64,000 bases of DNA. Origin: Verrucomicrobiota bacterium (lineage in GTDB: Bacteria; Verrucomicrobiota; Verrucomicrobiia; Limisphaerales; Palsa-1400). Under the pieces are notes generated by a model. It did not search any database, was not told the origin of the DNA, and saw only the letters and a list, made by a program, of their open reading frames with translations. The stretch spans positions 1 to 64,000 of the forward strand of contig JBEKYR010000008.1 of NCBI GenBank assembly GCA_049510745.1, given 5' to 3'. Positions 1-62,142 of this stretch are shown piece by piece (position 1 is the first letter of the stretch; the number at the start of each line of letters is the position of its first letter). Position numbers and translations under genes: made by a program.

Positions 1-1022
1 ATGCAGCGTTCCGCGCGTTTTGCTTCAAGTGCATCGGTTTCCACTATGCGCTGATAACGTTTGATCGCAAGATTCACGGCGGCTTCACTCCGCATCCCAG
101 CCATTTCCGCCAGCTCCCGTAGTGTCATACGCCCCTGGCTTCGCGCCAAACTCAACGCCAAGTCCCGCCCCCTGTCCCGATGCCTGTCGCGGAATTGCTC
201 CCACTTTTGGCCGCACGACTCTTCCACGACCCGCACCGTCTGATCCCATGTTGGCCGCGACCAATGCTTTTCCGCAATCCCTTTGACCCGGTCACCAACC
301 GCGTCCACTCCTTGAACTCGCGCCAACAATCTCTGGCTTCCAAGCACAAGGCCCTCCTTGAGGCTTTCCCATGGGGTCTTCTCCAAGCCTTGCACAATCG
401 CCTGCTCGACAAATCTGCGGTATCGCGCCCGCGCCTGCCCCTGAGGGCTCCGCCCCATTGACAGCACGCGCCCCGCCGTCAGCCAGGGCGCCGCCTTCGA
501 TGTGCCAATGTAAGCGCGATAGGAACTCCACCGGTAGCCTCGCAGCACCTCCAGACGCTCCTGAACCTGGCTCCGCAGAGGTTTTTCTCCAACCCCCAAG
601 CGGTCCGCTTGACGCTGGTCCTTGCCCAAGCCCAGCCGCGCCGTGCGCACCGGATTGAGGTGAATGTAGCGCGTCAACTCCCATCCCCAGCCTTCCGGTT
701 CGACAACAATCGATTTAAATCGACCTTGAAACAGATGGCCGACTCGTTGATGCCTTCGATTGAACCACGCTGCGTAACTGACGTTGAGCCACTGCAAGGC
801 CTCGCTCAAGTTCAGTTCCTGCAATTCCAGCAAAAGATGGTAATGATTACCCATCAGCACATACGCGTGAACGGCGACATGGAATTGTTCAACCATCCGC
901 CCGACCGTCTCACACCAATGGAGGCGGTCACGATCATCGCGGAAGATCGCCCGCCGCTCGTTGCCCCGGCTGGTGATGTGATACCAGCCGCCCGCCTGCT
1001 CGGATCGCAAAGGCCTGGCCAT
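1..1022 (-). CDS. REP-associated tyrosine transposase (RAYT, Y1 HUH) with C-terminal HTH; 3' end runs off the window
   Basis: Manual minus-strand translation from ATG 1022: MARPLRSEQAGGWYHITSRGN...HAYVLMGNHYHLLL (HUH)...GHLFQGRFKS...RYIHLNPVR (catalytic Tyr)...YRWSSY...MTLRELAEMAGMRSEAAVNLAIKR. Open to position 1, so absent from the ORF track. Confidence 0.93.
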   Translation of the reverse strand, partial: MARPLRSEQAGGWYHITSRGNERRAIFRDDRDRLHWCETVGRMVEQFHVAVHAYVLMGNHYHLLLELQELNLSEALQWLNVSYAAWFNRRHQRVGHLFQGRFKSIVVEPEGWGWELTRYIHLNPVRTARLGLGKDQRQADRLGVGEKPLRSQVQERLEVLRGYRWSSYRAYIGTSKAAPWLTAGRVLSMGRSPQGQARARYRRFVEQAIVQGLEKTPWESLKEGLVLGSQRLLARVQGVDAVGDRVKGIAEKHWSRPTWDQTVRVVEESCGQKWEQFRDRHRDRGRDLALSLARSQGRMTLRELAEMAGMRSEAAVNLAIKRYQRIVETDALEAKRAERC

Positions 1023-1029
1023 GATCCAA

Positions 1030-1058
1030 ATCCTATCCGGCACCCTGCCGCACGTCAA
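1030..1058 (-). promoter_or_regulatory. Sigma70-like promoter for a probably leaderless RAYT mRNA
   Basis: TTGACG-17 nt-TAGGAT, then 7 nt to ATG 1022. A second full copy lies inside the duplicated end at 1204-1305. Confidence 0.65.
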
Positions 1059-1063
1059 CTCAT

Positions 1064-1385
1064 TTGTTGAATGTATGAAGTTGACCCCAATGCTCGTCAC
1101 TTGAACAGACGCGCCAGTTTCGCCCAGGCTTGTTGGAACTGGCGCAGACCGCCGTCGCTCAATTGTTGAATGTATGAAGTTGACCCCAATGCTTTCAAGA
1201 ATGCGCCTGCTCGGATCGCAAAGGCCTGGCCATGATCCAAATCCTATCCGGCACCCTGCCGCACGTCAACTCATTTGTTGAATGTATGAAGTTGACCCCA
1301 ATGCTTTGATTGTTGACCCCAATGCTTTGCCCCAACTGCCGCACGTCAACTCAATTGTTGAATGTATGAAGTTGACCCCAATGCT
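1064..1385. repeat. Array of four copies of the 31-bp RAYT left-end motif TTGTTGAATGTATGAAGTTGACCCCAATGCT
   Basis: Exact copies at 1064-1094, 1163-1193, 1275-1305 and 1355-1385, plus a partial at ~1310-1326. Segment 1204-1305 duplicates 993-1094. Confidence 0.95.
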
Positions 1386-1583
1386 TTCCAATGCTTTCAA
1401 ATGCTCGTAAAAACTCGTAAAAACTAATGCTCGTAAAAAAAAAGTTCTGGACAGGGTTGGAGAATTCCAATATACTTCGTACCGAAAACAAAATGCCCAT
1501 GATGGAAATGGCGTTGCCGGCGCTTGGCTTTGCGCGGTGTTCTCGCCGCCAGAAGCCGATCAGGGGAGCTTGGAATACTGACT

Positions 1584-2450
1584 ATGCAAACGCTGAATTT
1601 AAATGACCTGAGGACCTCGGCAAAGGCCGATGAAAAAGCCTTTACCCTCATTGAACTGTTGGTGGTCATCGCCATCATCGCCATCCTGGCGGCTCTTTTG
1701 CTGCCGGCGTTGGCCAACGCCAAGAGGCAGACCCAAGGAATTGACTGCATGAGCAACCTCAAACAGTTATCCTTTGCCGCCATGAGTTTGTACACCGCTG
1801 ACAACAGGGGCTTTATGGCGCCCAACGGCAGTGAAAGCTTTCAACCGACGCTGGCCGAAGTCCTTGCCTATTTAAGTGGAACCGCAGGGAACACAGATCC
1901 GCAGTGGTGTCCGGGCCGGGAAGATGAAACGCAAATGTCCAGCAATGTGTTTATCATGGTGGGCCTCATTTACCCGTACGTCAAAACGGACAAGGTCTAT
2001 CTATGTCCGGCTGATAAAAGCACGGTCCCTGGCAGCAAACTGCCCAAGACCCGCAGCATGTCCATGAACGCTTTTATGTCCACCGCTCCGGAGAGCTTAG
2101 GCAACGTGGACACGTCAAAATGCCACATATATTACAAAGAAACGGATTTAACCATCGGCGGCGCCGCCAATCTCTGGCTCTTGATGGATGAGAATCCTTA
2201 CAGCATTAACGACGCATTCATGATCATCGACCCGACCAAGGGCGGTTGGATTGATTGGCCCGCGACTTACCACCTCAAAGCCAATGGCATCGCTTATGCC
2301 GATGGACACTGTTTGATCCACAAGTGGACCGACCCCCTCGTGTTGAACGACGACAAGGAGACCTCGAGTACTGGCGCTGTCAGCCCGCCCACTCCAGGCT
2401 ACCCGGACTTTCAGTGGATCAGCTCGCGCAGCACGGTGATGAGTCACTAA
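1584..2450 (+). CDS. Prepilin-type N-terminal cleavage/methylation protein (DUF1559 / H-X9-DG type)
   Basis: [29 protein letters not shown]...CMSNLKQL; C-terminal [13 protein letters not shown]. Confidence 0.92.
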
Positions 2451-2471
2451 CGAATTGGGGTCACTAACGAA

Positions 2472-2571
2472 TTGGGGTCAACCTCATACATTCAACATTT
2501 CGCCGATTTTGTTCAGCCGAGCGATGCAGCGTTCCGCGCGTTTTGCTTCAAGAGCGTCGGTTTCCACTATG
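2472..2571 (-). mobile_element. Isolated RAYT right-end fragment (terminal inverted repeat plus last ~29 codons)
   Basis: 2472-2497 is the reverse complement of the left-end motif (1 mismatch in 26). 2524-2571 matches window 1-48 with 2 synonymous differences. Encodes IVETDALEAKRAERCIARLNKIGEMLNV*. Confidence 0.9.
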
Positions 2572-2602
2572 GGAATCAAAATTGGGGTCAAATCTAAGAA
2601 TT

Positions 2603-2818
2603 CTACTGTTTGCTGGTCGTCATCCGCGTCGCGCCGCTTTGCTGGAAGACAATCTGCCCCACCAGCGGCGAATTGGCAAGATACGTGTAGGCCGCCGAAT
2701 TGGTGCCGTCCGAAACCGACGCCAGCCGCGAGGCGTTGTCGTAACCGTAAATGGCCTGGCAAAGCGCTGCCGAAGCGTTCCACAGCGCCAGATTGGTCCG
2801 GCGCAAATCGGAGTCGAA
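2603..2818 (-). pseudogene. Internal fragment of an RHS/YD-repeat protein
   Basis: FDSDLRRTNL...IYGYDNASRLASVSDGTNSAAYTYLANSPLVGQI resembles YD-repeat core sequence. No credible start; ends at a TGACCCC end motif. Confidence 0.7.
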
Positions 2819-2832
2819 CTTATCCTAAAGGA

Positions 2833-4215
2833 TCAGTCCTGCTTCCGCGAGCCGCCCGGCGCGCGGGGCAGCGGGGACGGCGCGTCCGCTGCTTCGTAAG
2901 CCATGACCGCCATGGCGGCGGCGCAGAGGCTCAGTTGGCGCGGGTCCAACTTGTCCATTGTGTCGGCGTCGGTGTGATGATACCAGAAATACTTCGTCTC
3001 ATCGTCCACCAAAGCCATCGTCGGAACGCCATCCTGCTCCAGTTGGGCCACGTCCGCTTCGCTGCCTTGGTCGAAGAATTTGTCCGTTCCAATCCCCGCC
3101 AGCGGCGCGGCCAGTTTTTGCGCGGCCCGACGGGCGGCAGCGGTCCCGACAAAGGAAAAGCCTTTCGGCTGGAAGGTGCCGCTGTCGGATTCGATGGCCA
3201 GGACGTGCCGGGATAATTCGCTTTTGTGCGCGCGCTCGTAGCCGCGCGCTCCCGCCAACCCATTCTCCTCGTTGGTCCAAAGGACGACGCGCACCGTGCG
3301 GCGGGGGCGCAATCCGAGTTGGTGCAGGAGGCGGACGGTTTCCCAGGCGCAGATGGCGCCGCCCCCGTCATCCATCGCGCCCTGGCCCACGTCCCAGGAA
3401 TCAATATGGCCGCTGACGATGACGATCTCGTCGGGCTTTTCGCGGCCGGCGATTTCGGCGACGACGTTGCGCGAGGGCGCATCCGGCAGCGTGGCCGCGC
3501 TCATGAGCAGCCGGACGACAATTCTCTCCCCGCGATCCTGCATGCGCTGCATCATTTCCGCGTCTTCGACGGTGATGGCGGCGTGGGGGATTTTGGGGAT
3601 GGAATTGCTGTAAGACATCCCGCCGGTGTGCGGCAATTGCAGGGAAAAGGGCGTCACCGAACGGATCAGGCTGGCGACCGCTCCGGCGCGGGCGGCCTCG
3701 ACCGCGCCCCGCACGCGAATGGCGACCGTTTCGTGGTACGTTGTAAACGGCGTGTTGAACACAACAATTTTGCCGGCGGCCTCGGAGGCGCGCCCCTTCA
3801 AATCGGCGAAGCTCTTGACGACCAACACCTCCGCTTCGATGCCTTCGGGCGGCGTGCCGATGCTGCCGCCCAAACCGAGCATCGGGAGCCGGCGCGGGCG
3901 CGGCAGAAGCATCCGGGCCGACTCCTCGCCCCGCACCCAATGCGGCACGGAAACCTCCTCGCCGTGGACGTTTTCCAGGCCGTCCATCTTCATTTCGGCG
4001 AGAATCCAATCAATGGCCGCTTCCAGGTTGGTCGTGCCGCTGAAGCGCGGCCCAAAAGTGTCGCACAGCCGGGCCAGCCGCTGCCAGGCGAAATCGGAGT
4101 TTGTGGCGGCGGCGATCAGCCGGGCCGGCGCGTCGTCCGCCACCGCCGGCCTGTCAAAGGTGGCGCAACTGGCCGCCAGGAGACAGGCGCAGCCGGGCAA
4201 AAAAAACCGCTTCAT
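2833..4215 (-). CDS. M28 family peptidase (carboxypeptidase Q-like), probable lipoprotein
   Basis: SGHIDSWDVGQGAMDDGGG, WTNEENG, IESD and YHHTDAD zinc-site motifs; PA domain; lipobox-like LAASC. Confidence 0.9.
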   Translation of the reverse strand: MKRFFLPGCACLLAASCATFDRPAVADDAPARLIAAATNSDFAWQRLARLCDTFGPRFSGTTNLEAAIDWILAEMKMDGLENVHGEEVSVPHWVRGEESARMLLPRPRRLPMLGLGGSIGTPPEGIEAEVLVVKSFADLKGRASEAAGKIVVFNTPFTTYHETVAIRVRGAVEAARAGAVASLIRSVTPFSLQLPHTGGMSYSNSIPKIPHAAITVEDAEMMQRMQDRGERIVVRLLMSAATLPDAPSRNVVAEIAGREKPDEIVIVSGHIDSWDVGQGAMDDGGGAICAWETVRLLHQLGLRPRRTVRVVLWTNEENGLAGARGYERAHKSELSRHVLAIESDSGTFQPKGFSFVGTAAARRAAQKLAAPLAGIGTDKFFDQGSEADVAQLEQDGVPTMALVDDETKYFWYHHTDADTMDKLDPRQLSLCAAAMAVMAYEAADAPSPLPRAPGGSRKQD

Positions 4216-5478: not shown

Positions 5479-5555
5479 CGGGGCGTAGCGTAGCTTGGTA
5501 GCGCGTCTGAATGGGGTTCAGAAGGTCGTGAGTTCAAATCTCACCGCCCCGACCA
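5479..5555 (+). tRNA. tRNA-Pro(GGG)
   Basis: Acceptor stem CGGGGCG/CGCCCCG, D-arm AGCTTGGTAG, anticodon stem TCTGA/TCAGA with loop ATGGGGT, T-loop GTTCAAAT, encoded CCA; 77 nt. Confidence 0.97.
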
Positions 5556-58830: not shown

Positions 58831-58859
58831 TTGACAGGGGGCGCGGCAGGGGGCATTCT
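58831..58859 (+). promoter_or_regulatory. Promoter of the mini-RAYT, reading into the GH2 gene
   Basis: TTGACA-17 nt-CATTCT, 6 nt before ATG 58866; same leaderless layout as the RAYT at 1022. Confidence 0.6.
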
Positions 58860-58865
58860 CCGAGC

Positions 58866-59016
58866 ATGGCGCGAAAGCTTCGCCTGCAATATCCGGGCGC
58901 GATTTATCACCTGATGCGCCGCGGCGACCACCGTGTGGAGATGGGATCCTGGAAATCCGTCAATCGAAGACTCTATGAACACCGACAGCAGAATCGACAT
59001 GCTAATGGGTGACCCC
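58866..59016 (+). mobile_element. Internally deleted mini-RAYT ending in TGACCCC
   Basis: 48-aa ORF MARKLRLQYPGAIYHLMRRGDHR fused to VEMGSWKSVNRRLYEHRQQNRHANG*; the stop is the TGA of TGACCCC (59010-59016). Confidence 0.8.
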
Positions 59017-61941
59017 TTTATCGTTGCCCTTGCCTCGATTTCGCTGTGGCTGGCTGCCACCGGCGCGATCACCGCCGGCGCCGCGGAGCCCCCGTGGGAG
59101 GCACGCACCTACGACGTGCTGCCCGTCAGCGCGCGCGCCGAAACCGGCGATGAGGCGTCCAGCCGGCAGATGACGCTCGGCGGCCAGTGGGATCTGGCTG
59201 AGACCCAGGCGGAATCCGGGTCCGCCCTAGGAGACTTGGACAAGCTGAGTTGGACCCGCGTCGAAATGCCGGACGCCATCCAGCACGCCCTGTTTCTGGC
59301 CGGAAAGACGGACAACCCTTGGTATGGCGATAACTACAAAAAGCTCCAGTGGATCGCCGAGCGAAACTGGTACCTGCGCCGTCGCTTCCGCATCCCCGAT
59401 GCCTGGCAAGGCCGTCACATCCGGCTGCGTTTCGACGGGCTGAACTATGCCGGTGCCGTCTGGCTGGACGGCCGATTCCTCGGCGTTCACGAGGGCATGT
59501 TCGGCGGACCGACCCTGGATGTCACAGCCCTGTTGGGGCCGGGCCGAGAGCATGAGCTCGTTGTCCGCCTGATTGCCGAAAAGGACCCGAGCCGGTCCAT
59601 GAAGTCCAAGGCGATGGAAGGCGTGCCGTTTTTGTGGGGCAACAAGTTCCGCACAATCGGTCTCTATCAGCCCATTAGGCTGGTCAGTTCCGGAGCGGCC
59701 TATATGGAAGCGCCCTGCGTGCGCACCGACGCGATCGGAGAGAGGACGGCCCGCTTGTGGGCCCAGGCCACGATCATCCATAGCGGCGCCGCCCGGTTGG
59801 AGGGCACGATCCGGGCCCAAATCGTGGACCTCACGACCGGTCGAATCATTTGGAAGGAGGATGCCAGGCAATCCGTGCCTGCGGGCACGTCCTACTGGGA
59901 GCGGTCCATCGAAATCGGCGACCCGAAGCTCTGGTGGCCCGTCGGCCTGGGCGCTCAACCGCTCTACCGCTTGGAACTGGCGCTGGCCGTCGGAAACCAG
60001 GAATTGGACCGCATCGCTTCGCGATTCGGGATCCGGACCGTGGAGCTCCTGCGCAACCCCTATCTGGCGGACAAGCCGCGGGCCAATCCCGGCAAGCCGG
60101 ACTTCATGTCGGCCACGCCGAAGATTGGCGATCCGGCCAGCGCAAAGCTCTGGAACCGGCCGGACCTCTGGTGCGGCGATCACCCTGTGGAAGACGACGC
60201 CTTGCACAACGCCGATGAGTCGTACCGCTTCCTCTTCGCGGTGAACGGCCGGCCGTTTTTCATCAAAGGGGCGAGCTGGATGACCTCGGATGATCTGTTG
60301 GTGCTCTCGCCCCAGCGCGAGGACTGGCTGGTGCGCGCCGCGCGCTTCGCGGGGTTGAACCTCTTCCGCCTCAACGGGGGCAACAACATCTTCGAGACCG
60401 AGCGGTTCTACGATCTCTGCGATGAGAACGGCATCCTGGTGTGGCAGGAATTGCAGTTCAGCTTTGATCGGGGAAGCAAGGTCCCGCTGCGAACCTGGCG
60501 CGAACAGTTGAAGCAGTCCGTGCTGCGCCTCCGACAGCATCCGTCGCTGGCGCTCTATGTGGGCGGCAACGAGTACGCCCCCTACGTCGAGGCCTTGGCG
60601 CCCTACCTGGGAATCGCTCGCGAGATCATTGCCGCTTACGACAACCGGCCCTTCCGCATGTCCTCGCCGGGCGGCGGCGACTATCACGCCTACTACACGC
60701 CGGAGGGCGATTTCGGTGACTTGTGGATCGGCGATCCCAACTGGTATGCCCGCTACTTCGACGAGTCGGTCAACTTTGTCTCGGAATGGTCCCTCATGGG
60801 CTACGGCAATATGTCCATGATGAAACGCGTGTTCCCGCGCGAGGAGCTGGCAGGCGGGCCCGTCGGCAACGATTGTGCGAAGTTCGCACAGGCCCACCCT
60901 ATCCTGCACAGCAGCTTTCCGGAAGTGGAGCGGGCGCTGCCGCTGCTGTATTGCAAGGCCTCCATCTATGGGAACCTGGCCCGGGCGGACATGCCGGACT
61001 TCGTCGAATACAGCCAGATGGCTCTGGCCGACGTGTATGAATGCGTCTTCGAACAATGGCGCGCACAGTTCCCCTACAAGGGCGGGCAAATTGTCTGGAC
61101 CTACAACAGTCACGGCCCCATTTCTTCGTGGAATATCATTGACTGGTTCGGCCAGCCGCTGATTGCGTTCTATTCCACCAAGCGCGCGGATGAACCGGTC
61201 CACGTCATGGCGGACGCCGGCTTCTTTACCTGGGGTCCCGGTGATACGTTCAAGCCCTCGGTCTTCGCCCTGAACGACGCCCCGGAGCCGCTCAAAGGGG
61301 CGCGGGTCACGGCCCGCATCCTCGACCGCCGCATGCAGCCCGTCCTCACGGAATCATGGAGGCTGACCGTGCCTGCGGGCGGTCGCCACAGCGAGGCGCG
61401 CCAACTGCAATGGCCCATTCCCGCGGATACTCCGGATGGCTGCTTCTTCTTGGAGCTGACCTTGAAGGACGCGGCAGGACACCAACTTTCACGCCGAGCC
61501 TACTGGCTGAGGGTCGTCCAGTCGCTGGCCAACGCCCAAGCGCGGATGCGCTGGCAGGCCGGGGCCGTGAAGGAACCGCTGGCCACGCAGGGGCCTTGGC
61601 TGAAGCCCCAGTTGGAAGGCGTCCCCACAACCCTCTCGGCGGAAGTGACGTCTCTCGAAGCGTTCGCAACGGAGGCCCGTTTGACCTTGGTCGTGAAGAA
61701 CGCGGGGACGGCACCGGCTTATCCGGTGCGGATTGCGCTGCTTCCTGACTCCTGTTCCGCCGTGTGGAGCGACAACTACTTCTGGCTCGCGCCGGACGAG
61801 ACCAGGACGGTTACAGGCATTGTGCGGCTGGACATGCGCGGCTTGGATCCCCTCAGCCCTGCACTGGTCGCCAAGGTTTCGGACCTAAAAGTCGAGGTGT
61901 CCGCGTGGAACTCGAAACGCTTCGTCCTGACGCCGAAATGA
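58975..61941 (+). CDS. Glycoside hydrolase family 2 protein (beta-mannosidase-like)
   Basis: RLRFDGLNY, LWWPVGLGAQPLY, VNGRPFFIKG, CDENGILVWQE, HPSLALYVGGNE (acid/base), FVSEW (nucleophile); start uncertain. Confidence 0.9.
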   Translation: MNTDSRIDMLMGDPFIVALASISLWLAATGAITAGAAEPPWEARTYDVLPVSARAETGDEASSRQMTLGGQWDLAETQAESGSALGDLDKLSWTRVEMPDAIQHALFLAGKTDNPWYGDNYKKLQWIAERNWYLRRRFRIPDAWQGRHIRLRFDGLNYAGAVWLDGRFLGVHEGMFGGPTLDVTALLGPGREHELVVRLIAEKDPSRSMKSKAMEGVPFLWGNKFRTIGLYQPIRLVSSGAAYMEAPCVRTDAIGERTARLWAQATIIHSGAARLEGTIRAQIVDLTTGRIIWKEDARQSVPAGTSYWERSIEIGDPKLWWPVGLGAQPLYRLELALAVGNQELDRIASRFGIRTVELLRNPYLADKPRANPGKPDFMSATPKIGDPASAKLWNRPDLWCGDHPVEDDALHNADESYRFLFAVNGRPFFIKGASWMTSDDLLVLSPQREDWLVRAARFAGLNLFRLNGGNNIFETERFYDLCDENGILVWQELQFSFDRGSKVPLRTWREQLKQSVLRLRQHPSLALYVGGNEYAPYVEALAPYLGIAREIIAAYDNRPFRMSSPGGGDYHAYYTPEGDFGDLWIGDPNWYARYFDESVNFVSEWSLMGYGNMSMMKRVFPREELAGGPVGNDCAKFAQAHPILHSSFPEVERALPLLYCKASIYGNLARADMPDFVEYSQMALADVYECVFEQWRAQFPYKGGQIVWTYNSHGPISSWNIIDWFGQPLIAFYSTKRADEPVHVMADAGFFTWGPGDTFKPSVFALNDAPEPLKGARVTARILDRRMQPVLTESWRLTVPAGGRHSEARQLQWPIPADTPDGCFFLELTLKDAAGHQLSRRAYWLRVVQSLANAQARMRWQAGAVKEPLATQGPWLKPQLEGVPTTLSAEVTSLEAFATEARLTLVVKNAGTAPAYPVRIALLPDSCSAVWSDNYFWLAPDETRTVTGIVRLDMRGLDPLSPALVAKVSDLKVEVSAWNSKRFVLTPK

Positions 61942-61947
61942 ACACGA

Positions 61948-62142
61948 GCCCGAAAGCTTTGCCTGCGATATCCGGGCGCGGTTTATCACCCGATGAGCCG
62001 CGGCGACCACCGGGAGCCGGTCTTCCTGGAGGAGTCCGACCGGCCAATGTTTCTCTCCACCCTGGGCGAGGCCTGCGCCAAGACCGACTGGCAGGTCCAC
62101 GCCTGCTGCCTGATGAACAACCACTTTCATCTGGTCGTCGAA
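61948..62142 (+). pseudogene. RAYT N-terminal fragment without start codon, truncated after the HUH motif
   Basis: ARKLCLRYPGAVYHPMSRGDHREPVF...WQVHACCLMNNHFHLVVE. Confidence 0.88.

Follow-up and report, generated by a model that had tools for sequence, protein, structure and literature searches.

How did a complete pilin-like gene come to stand between inverted copies of a transposase end? This question is raised by the start of contig JBEKYR010000008.1 of a Verrucomicrobiota bacterium (assembly GCA_049510745.1), of which we analyzed positions 1 to 64,000, referred to below as the window. This contig, C8 below, belongs to a genome (here called G000) that comprises 5.6 Mb in 85 contigs, and the window is its first part. 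The neighbor of the pilin-like gene encodes a RAYT-like HUH transposase of the Y1 type, which we assign to the TIRYTs, the enzymes of the TIRtron elements. The original prediction regarded the ends of this element as recombination sites at which accessory genes are inserted or shuffled in a cassette-like way. We indeed found such ends at breakpoints with accessory DNA, both genome-wide and in relatives; the reversible shuffling of cassettes, however, is not shown. Collectively, our results suggest that the TIRYT likely cuts single-stranded DNA 6–9 nt outside an end and attaches unrelated DNA there, with each end being joined separately.

The transposase belongs to a complete TIRtron

The layout of the locus is known from contigs, and the window begins at a contig edge. 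The intact RAYT that had been proposed to run off this edge was confirmed as a Y1 open reading frame (1022 to 3, minus strand) that is completed on contig C31. The two contigs share 66 nt at the window start, and C31 carries the last 13 codons of the transposase together with its own right end. Joined across the two contigs, the full-length TIRYT has 353 amino acids. Its residues H60, H62 and Y119 are invariant in all seven aligned relatives, and its C-terminal tail matches the DnaA domain IV profile (E 3e-4), with weak matches to Pfam Bac_DnaA_C in 2/7 members. The sequence GGGGTCAA, present at both ends of the element, agrees with the GGGGWSAS consensus at 7 of 8 positions. TIRtrons have been described as a Y1 enzyme with a C-terminal helix-turn-helix encoded between inverted repeats headed GGGG(A/T)(C/G)A (Di Nocera et al. 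2013, PMC3733652), and TIRtron/TIRYT has been equated with TnpA-Y1 subclass 2.1 in another study (Quentin et al., 10.1101/279083). Judged by its sequence, which combines the HUH motif, the tyrosine, a DnaA-like tail and GGGGTCA terminal repeats, the element is a complete TIRtron/TIRYT of subclass 2.1. As had been stated, the repeats that bound this Y1 HUH enzyme are inverted and not palindromic. The ends of 30 related loci were also inspected; most of these loci are bounded by their own 25–30-nt repeats, often with stuttered tips.

Several other families were considered and rejected. A REPtron (RAYT groups 2 and 3) does not fit ends that lack the GTAG tag and that fold singly at z −1.7 to +0.2, and the NCBIfam model REP_Tyr_transpos scores 58.9 bits, under its cut-off of 80. 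The IS200/IS605 family has a short, core-only TnpA and subterminal hairpins, whereas the present protein has 353 amino acids with a C-terminal extension and lies between terminal inverted repeats instead. IS91/ISCR was set aside as Pfam gives Y1_Tnp only and the two ends are inverted copies, not a dissimilar ori and ter. Finally, the locus is not a composite transposon, in which two whole elements would enclose the cargo and a short target duplication would bound the outer ends: on the right there is no whole element, only a fragment of 104 nt that is fused to an end of another family and a piece of an Rhs gene.

Elsewhere, a 72% orthologous TIRYT of the relative G061 (L140:4976-6871, G061:C29) has parA/parB-like genes as neighbors, and the stretch beyond its left end contains a gene of the Abi_2 family. 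The sequence at G000:C10:26951-27868 is a third full-length TIRYT, and no terminal repeats were recognizable in the flanks inspected. A search of a plasmid collection returned 14 records, all of them distant, and no close match. A single-sequence structure prediction (pLDDT 34) was not used.

Joints around the pilin-like gene

The four left-end copies between the transposase and the pilin-like gene, already counted in the original prediction, start at 1067, 1166, 1278 and 1358, and a partial copy lies at 1312. On the far side of the gene, the 27-nt arm of the right-end fragment (2471–2497) is 96% complementary to the left end, so that the fragment is an inverted left end facing the pilin-like gene, as proposed. 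This end had been placed 21 nt after the pilin stop codon. That distance holds for the motif (2471) and not for the joint, because a 17-nt stutter of the tip sets the right extension against the stop codon; the joint is therefore at the stop codon. The idea that the fragment comes from a sibling copy gained support, since it differs from the transposase's own end at 4/106 nt and since a 239-nt module (2466–2703), made up of the right end, an end of a second family (at 2584) and an Rhs fragment, is also found on contig C6 with 94.6% identity. The presence of this module on C6 indicates that short modules move between loci.

The pilin-like gene (1584–2450) is complete, in agreement with the earlier view. 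Its nearest relative, P0002, which lies on an unplaced metagenome contig, is 81% identical and of the same length. Comparison with a paralogue on contig C10 had suggested that the gene is truncated at the joint; this was rejected, as the C terminus of the 81% relative lies at the same residue. In a homologue search, accompanied by a tree, the family's best pilin homologues were closer to the C10 paralogue than to the window copy. Were the ends merely inserted around a resident gene, the pilin-like gene should accompany the neighboring M28 peptidase in relatives that lack the ends; in 29 of 29 other loci, each read to at most 1.5 kb, it was not beside M28. Under the mechanism proposed below, two independent one-ended events probably fixed the pilin-like gene at this place.

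Position and orientation of ends across the genome

The genome-wide search that had been proposed returned 32 copies of the 22-mer end on 10 contigs, which form a dispersed family of one repeat, and 89 ends of six families in 59 clusters, compared to 2 hits in the reversed genome. Conservation runs 6 nt past TGACCCC (AATGCT on the left, AA(A/T)TCG on the right) and drops after 6–7 nt, as judged from 21 left and 10 right distinct flanks; in the relative G017 it falls off about 9 nt past the end (41 flanks). TGACCCC itself had been named as the breakpoint: the joints are at the ends, but 6–9 nt outside this motif. Adjacent clusters within 6 kb of each other (n = 18) form 11 facing, 4 back-to-back and 3 tandem pairs (p 0.001 vs 25%), although p-values overstate such effects because several ends of one cluster and related genomes were counted. 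Most of the 14 intervals inspected contain one or two genes, and 4 hold a gene cut in its 3′ part by an end.

The DNA on the two sides of an end differs in base composition. Among 47 one-way clusters, which leave out 7 clusters of mixed orientation and 5 near contig edges, 39 have a lower G+C content in the outer 500 nt than in the inner 500 nt (medians of 0.53 and 0.59, against a background of 0.61), and 29 outer vs 8 inner windows fall into the lowest decile of the background. The asymmetry extends over about 1.5 kb, is gone by 2 kb and is also seen at solo ends (19/23). It was replicated in G017 (29/41) and in a set drawn mostly from G022 (16/21), and was weak in G061 (17/22) and in a mixed set (16/22). 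Two REP-like repeats used as controls showed no clear asymmetry.

Further observations concern the surroundings of these and other repeats. A repeat family ending GCGTCAAG.CTGTCACC (G000 C1:105874 and 12 other sites) faces low-G+C DNA at 11/13 sites and may form the ends of a further element family. An insertion sequence (IS)-like terminal sequence, GGGGTTTTTCAGCAGAATC, recurs at a fixed inner position of the terminal inverted repeat (TIR) ends, at G000:C41:29224 and many times in G061, G022, G006 and G024 (loci L156, L166, L194, L210, L216, L219 and L228); this constant position suggests an IS that targets these repeats. Right ends often lie 3–30 nt ahead of the ATG of the next gene (L071, on G008:C1; L080, L082, L088 and L091), and at one right end among loci of this type a sugar-nucleotide gene starts 7 nt after the end. 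G008 contains at least 10 mini-elements of 60–70 nt with both ends of one TIR family. Their spread resembles that of miniature inverted-repeat transposable elements and differs from the pattern in G000 and G017, where ends occur solo.

Breakpoints with a known other side

On contig C31, beyond the right end of the transposase, a 100-codon membrane-protein gene lies between this end and further left ends. A gene of G006, a relative from another genus, matches it at 91% identity, compared to about 75% for the flanking genes. The G006 copy directly follows and overlaps the stop codon of an Rhs variable tip, which is the usual position of an immunity gene, and the neighboring cassette gives an NCBIfam Rhs core hit; from its position, the G006-like gene would be an immunity gene. 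The homology between C31 and G006 begins 9 nt past TGACCCC, at a point within the final 80 nt of the toxin gene, and extends to 3 nt beyond the stop codon of the membrane-protein gene. Since the left end of the transposase is not followed by the other part of the cut Rhs toxin gene, a simple insertion of the element into the toxin gene does not explain this arrangement.

Locus L063 contains a copy of the 3′ part of a resident gene, 98.4% identical to that on C43, and a right end is joined within this copy, which gives a facing pair around host DNA. On C59, a 3.4-kb facing unit bordered by an 88-nt duplication of 93% identity is missing in 3/3 relatives that have both flanks on one contig. The unit on C52 is missing in 3/3 relatives as well, where a shorter segment, in G006 a single resident gene, occupies the position, and the flanks of the C6 unit join in G002 and G006 across a 5.6-kb gap that holds other DNA. 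For the units on C1, C2, C9 and C24, the flanks are on different contigs in the five relatives searched.

Ends at the boundaries of Rhs toxin–immunity cassettes

Genomes of the family were searched with an Rhs core fragment, and the 39 hits that cover its start were inspected. A TIRYT end was present within 500 nt upstream of 17/24 truncated Rhs cassettes, in six genomes, compared to 3/400 control windows upstream of open reading frames; one of the 17 is the query locus and another is a weak match with 5 mismatches. None of the 15 hits in long open frames had a TIRYT end. As can be seen in four arrays of G017 (Table 1), a core fragment, tip and immunity gene are followed by an end and by the next core fragment. 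A single, fixed fusion of end and core recurs in seven G017 cassettes, and its in-frame ATG start codon comes from the end. The outer joints of these cassettes vary, lying 4–74 nt past the previous stop codon where a gene was called and, in one case, 22 nt inside that gene. In two arrays, the same toxin–immunity module meets the next end at junctions that differ by 40 nt, and different cassettes are joined 9–11 nt outside the end with no outer homology. Whole TIRYTs with the same terminal repeat are present elsewhere in G017.

A proposed one-ended joining mechanism

TnpA-REP has been described as cleaving near its repeat, forming a 5′-phosphotyrosine and fusing the cleaved DNA to an attacking oligonucleotide with a 3′-OH (PMC8266576). 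By analogy with this chemistry, the TIRYT would bind its repeat, probably via the helix-turn-helix, and cut 6–9 nt outside it, which would leave the strand reading GGGGTCA bound to the catalytic tyrosine. Any free 3′-OH, whether on incoming DNA, another end or a nascent strand, could then resolve the bound end. A single event would yield a solo end with foreign DNA outside it, two events would yield a facing pair, and repeated rounds could generate stutters, stacked ends and modules common to several loci. The other side of the newcomer would be fixed either by a second end, giving a facing pair, or by homology, and selection would keep those joints that leave a whole gene and a promoter. Such one-ended joining fits the evidence better than the excision and re-insertion of a cassette between two sites.

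A number of observations weigh against this mechanism. The pilin-like gene has an ordinary G+C content at third codon positions (0.69 vs a genome median of 0.72), which does not support a foreign origin by composition, and neither a donor nor an empty site was found for it; likewise, no exact empty site for the locus was found in relatives. Only 2/60 prepilin genes of the genome lie within 400 nt of an end, and none of 23 pilin-homologue loci of relatives has one, so that pilins are not a preferred cargo. No donors for the C6 and C24 cargoes were found in 250 genomes of the order. Strain-variable cargo and reads across left-end–right-end junctions or circles had been anticipated; the contigs of eight peat runs, which look clonal and whose joints map to other known loci with no variant joint, contained no cargo-less strain, circle or cargo-free facing junction. 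The counts of ends given above are not independent, a control repeat family (TGTCACC) is also asymmetric in G+C content (11/13), and the orientation of ends relative to GC skew showed no strand bias (22 vs 17). On their inner side, the repeats often carry a fused IS-like end, which could explain some truncations without any TIRYT. The 17 end-bearing Rhs cassettes represent about 9 independent fusion points, those of G017 deriving from one fusion, and no biochemistry was found in the literature for subclass 2.1.

In a rather unlikely alternative, the ends are ordinary litter. TIRtrons and their mini-elements would hop whole into tolerant variable regions, later deletions and IS insertions would leave single ends next to genes that had come in by other routes, and a facing pair would reflect two same-direction insertions around a gene; Rhs arrays would grow by homology-facilitated illegitimate recombination, carrying along one old end-to-core fusion. 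This would account for the clustering of ends and agrees with the patchy, multi-copy distribution of TIRYT relatives (47/61 genomes searched, at most 19 matches each), the whole two-ended mini-elements common in G008, the different neighbors that the same TIRYT has in G061 and the lack of pilin enrichment near ends. The published array model is likewise one of displacement by homology-facilitated illegitimate recombination, according to PMC5361080. Litter, however, predicts no side preference, yet low-G+C DNA sits on the outer side. It also leaves unexplained why different cassettes are joined at the same place without outer homology, and why the rest of the cut Rhs toxin gene is absent beyond the other end of the transposase.

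An integron-like reversible system, in which the TIRYT would excise single-gene circles between two ends and re-insert them at other ends, is improbable. Such a system could be read from the direct-repeat ends that separate successive Rhs toxin–immunity cassettes at four G017 loci, from the facing intervals, most of which contain one or two whole genes, and from 75-nt end-to-end minis, which stand between genes on C2 and have a strong hairpin fold (z −9). Against this, one module has different 3′ joints at two loci, ends of different families are paired, a gene is cut in its 3′ part in 4/14 intervals, and no identical cassette at two sites, circle or empty junction was seen. An integron would have a tyrosine-recombinase integrase at the array, whereas the sole enzyme at the locus is a Y1 HUH protein.

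An artefact of assembly at a repeat-rich contig edge is scarcely credible: although the contig breaks at the window start, no long read is available and the number of left-end copies varies by assembly (2 in the independent JGI contig L045 vs 4 in the window), L045 spans the C31–C8 join, this join and other loci are matched at 99–100% by independent JGI contigs, Logan contigs (X3 pieces 1360–1678 and 1896–2513) bridge the left end to the pilin start and the pilin to the right end at even depth, and every left-end copy carries distinct flanks.

One-ended joining, if it occurs, could have a wider role. TIRYTs may be gene-acquisition enzymes and the scattered ends standing capture sites, with HUH ligation of incoming DNA building accessory units and Rhs arrays without a tyrosine recombinase; we offer this tentatively, as a possibility that falls short of being probable. 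If true, the integron would have a counterpart based on HUH chemistry, and the growth of polymorphic-toxin arrays would have a dedicated helper enzyme. Ligation of foreign DNA by the enzyme would explain how orphan Rhs arrays of these bacteria gain cassettes, a step for which rare illegitimate recombination is now made responsible. It would also be a further way of acquiring genes and possibly a tool for joining single-stranded DNA. To the question of the role that RAYT-like enzymes play in their hosts, the locus contributes an intact enzyme whose end is exactly defined, natural joints and a predicted position of the cut, which make a simple in vitro test feasible.

Genomic context and the GH2 locus

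The stretch occurs in peat and wetland metagenome runs, and its homologues are labeled Verrucomicrobia. A tRNA-Pro(GGG) is located at 5479–5555 of the window; in G001, of the same genus, it lies directly behind the gene to the left of the whole block, so that the C31-side gene abuts tRNA-Pro and the entire block, including M28, is missing. Other relatives carry different genes behind M28. The gene that adjoins M28 in some relatives is one that we take, from its sequence, to be anmK-like (Table 1).

A GH2 locus at 58.8–62.2 kb had been cited as a similar arrangement. It contains no end of the six families of the genome, merely two 5′ TIRYT fragments, which share 65 nt at 91% identity, and it was therefore discarded as a second example. 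The GH2 gene, which was not found in any of the five relatives searched, lies downstream of an apparent TIRYT promoter, and similar 5′ fragments are present at C8:66400 and C8:68580.

Table 1. Coordinates of features in the window, and of the Rhs arrays of G017
Feature	Position	Strand	Remark
TIRYT (RAYT-like Y1 HUH transposase, subclass 2.1), codons 1–340 of 353	3..1022	-	Pfam Y1_Tnp; remainder on C31
Predicted transposase promoter (TTGACG-17-TAGGAT), within left end	1030..1058; duplicated 1241–1269	-	consensus match only
Left-end copy 1, the transposase's own: terminal repeat ending TGACCCC plus AATGCT extension	1062..1094	+
Module: inner end fragment of another family fused to left-end copy 2	1106..1193	+	94% copy on C31, about 1.9 kb away
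Exact 102-nt duplicate: 5′ part of transposase plus left end (copy 3)	1204..1305	+	repeat family D1
Partial end, left-end copy 4 (1358–1379) and stuttered short extension repeats	1311..1439	+
Predicted sigma-70 promoter of pilin-like gene (TGGACA-17-TATACT, 10/12)	1448..1476	+	consensus match only
Prepilin-motif gene, complete, 288 aa	1584..2450	+	one of 60 in genome
17-nt stutter of right-end tip; extension abuts pilin stop codon	2443..2476	-	repeat family D12
Right-end fragment: last codons of sibling TIRYT, terminal repeat and AATTCG extension, facing pilin	2468..2571	-
End of second TIRtron family, same orientation as right-end fragment	2578..2606	-
Rhs (YD-repeat-type) gene fragment, inner side of ends	2606..2806	-	label from likeness to neighboring YD-repeat fragments, not a profile hit
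M28 peptidase, resident flank	2836..4209	-	adjoins anmK-like gene in 9/29 relative loci, pilin in 0/29
GH2 gene with a 5′ fragment of another TIRYT family on either side	58831..62142	+	no terminal repeats
G017 orphan Rhs arrays	L265:9105-13760, L266, L267, L268

Comparison with known systems

IS91 and ISCR capture DNA by one-ended rolling-circle transposition, in which an HUH enzyme moves the DNA adjoining one end. Those elements differ from the present one in having a Y2-type transposase and unlike ori and ter ends, whereas here the repeats are symmetric, fall into several families and occur mostly as solo ends.

Our literature search, outside of which most subscription journals lay, found no paper on gene capture by TIRtrons or on TIRtron-bounded Rhs cassettes; the element is a known family member with a behavior found in no paper. 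It shares with the TIRtron as first described the Y1 HUH enzyme, the terminal repeats and their dispersal as singles, dimers and clusters. The 6–9-nt extension, the stutters, the outer joints to foreign genes and the Rhs arrays do not appear in those parts of that paper that describe the repeats (PMC3733652), and its authors call for assays of the element. With REPtrons, the likeness lies in the HUH chemistry, with cleavage near the repeat, a 5′-phosphotyrosine and transfer to a 3′-OH; as characterized in the relevant part of Corneloup et al. 2021 (PMC8266576), however, these have GTAG-tagged hairpin REPs in hundreds of copies and no gene-sized cargo.

Orphan Rhs and type VI secretion system immunity arrays likewise consist of core fragments, toxin tips and immunity genes in series, and differ from those described here in that a transposase end stands at the cassette boundary in the latter. 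Their growth has been attributed to homology-facilitated illegitimate recombination (C-terminal displacement), with no integrase-like helper known in the account given there (Kirchberger et al. 2017, PMC5361080, in part). Recombinase-associated immunity arrays are mentioned in 10.64898/2026.07.13.738213; no link to a transposase is made in the available portions of that work or of PMC3150448, and RAYT and Rhs are treated separately in those of 10.1101/2024.07.17.603846.

The nearest published idea is the association of subclass 2.1 TnpA-REP with prochlorosin genes in picocyanobacteria, for which mobilization by the enzyme was proposed and causality was left unresolved by the authors (Laurenceau et al., 10.1101/2020.03.09.984088). 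The two systems have in common the subclass, as well as full copies and C-terminal fragments that face variable accessory genes at a fixed distance. They differ in that no inverted repeats were found and a single cargo family was involved in the prochlorosin case, whereas here the repeats and breakpoints are defined and the cargo is varied.

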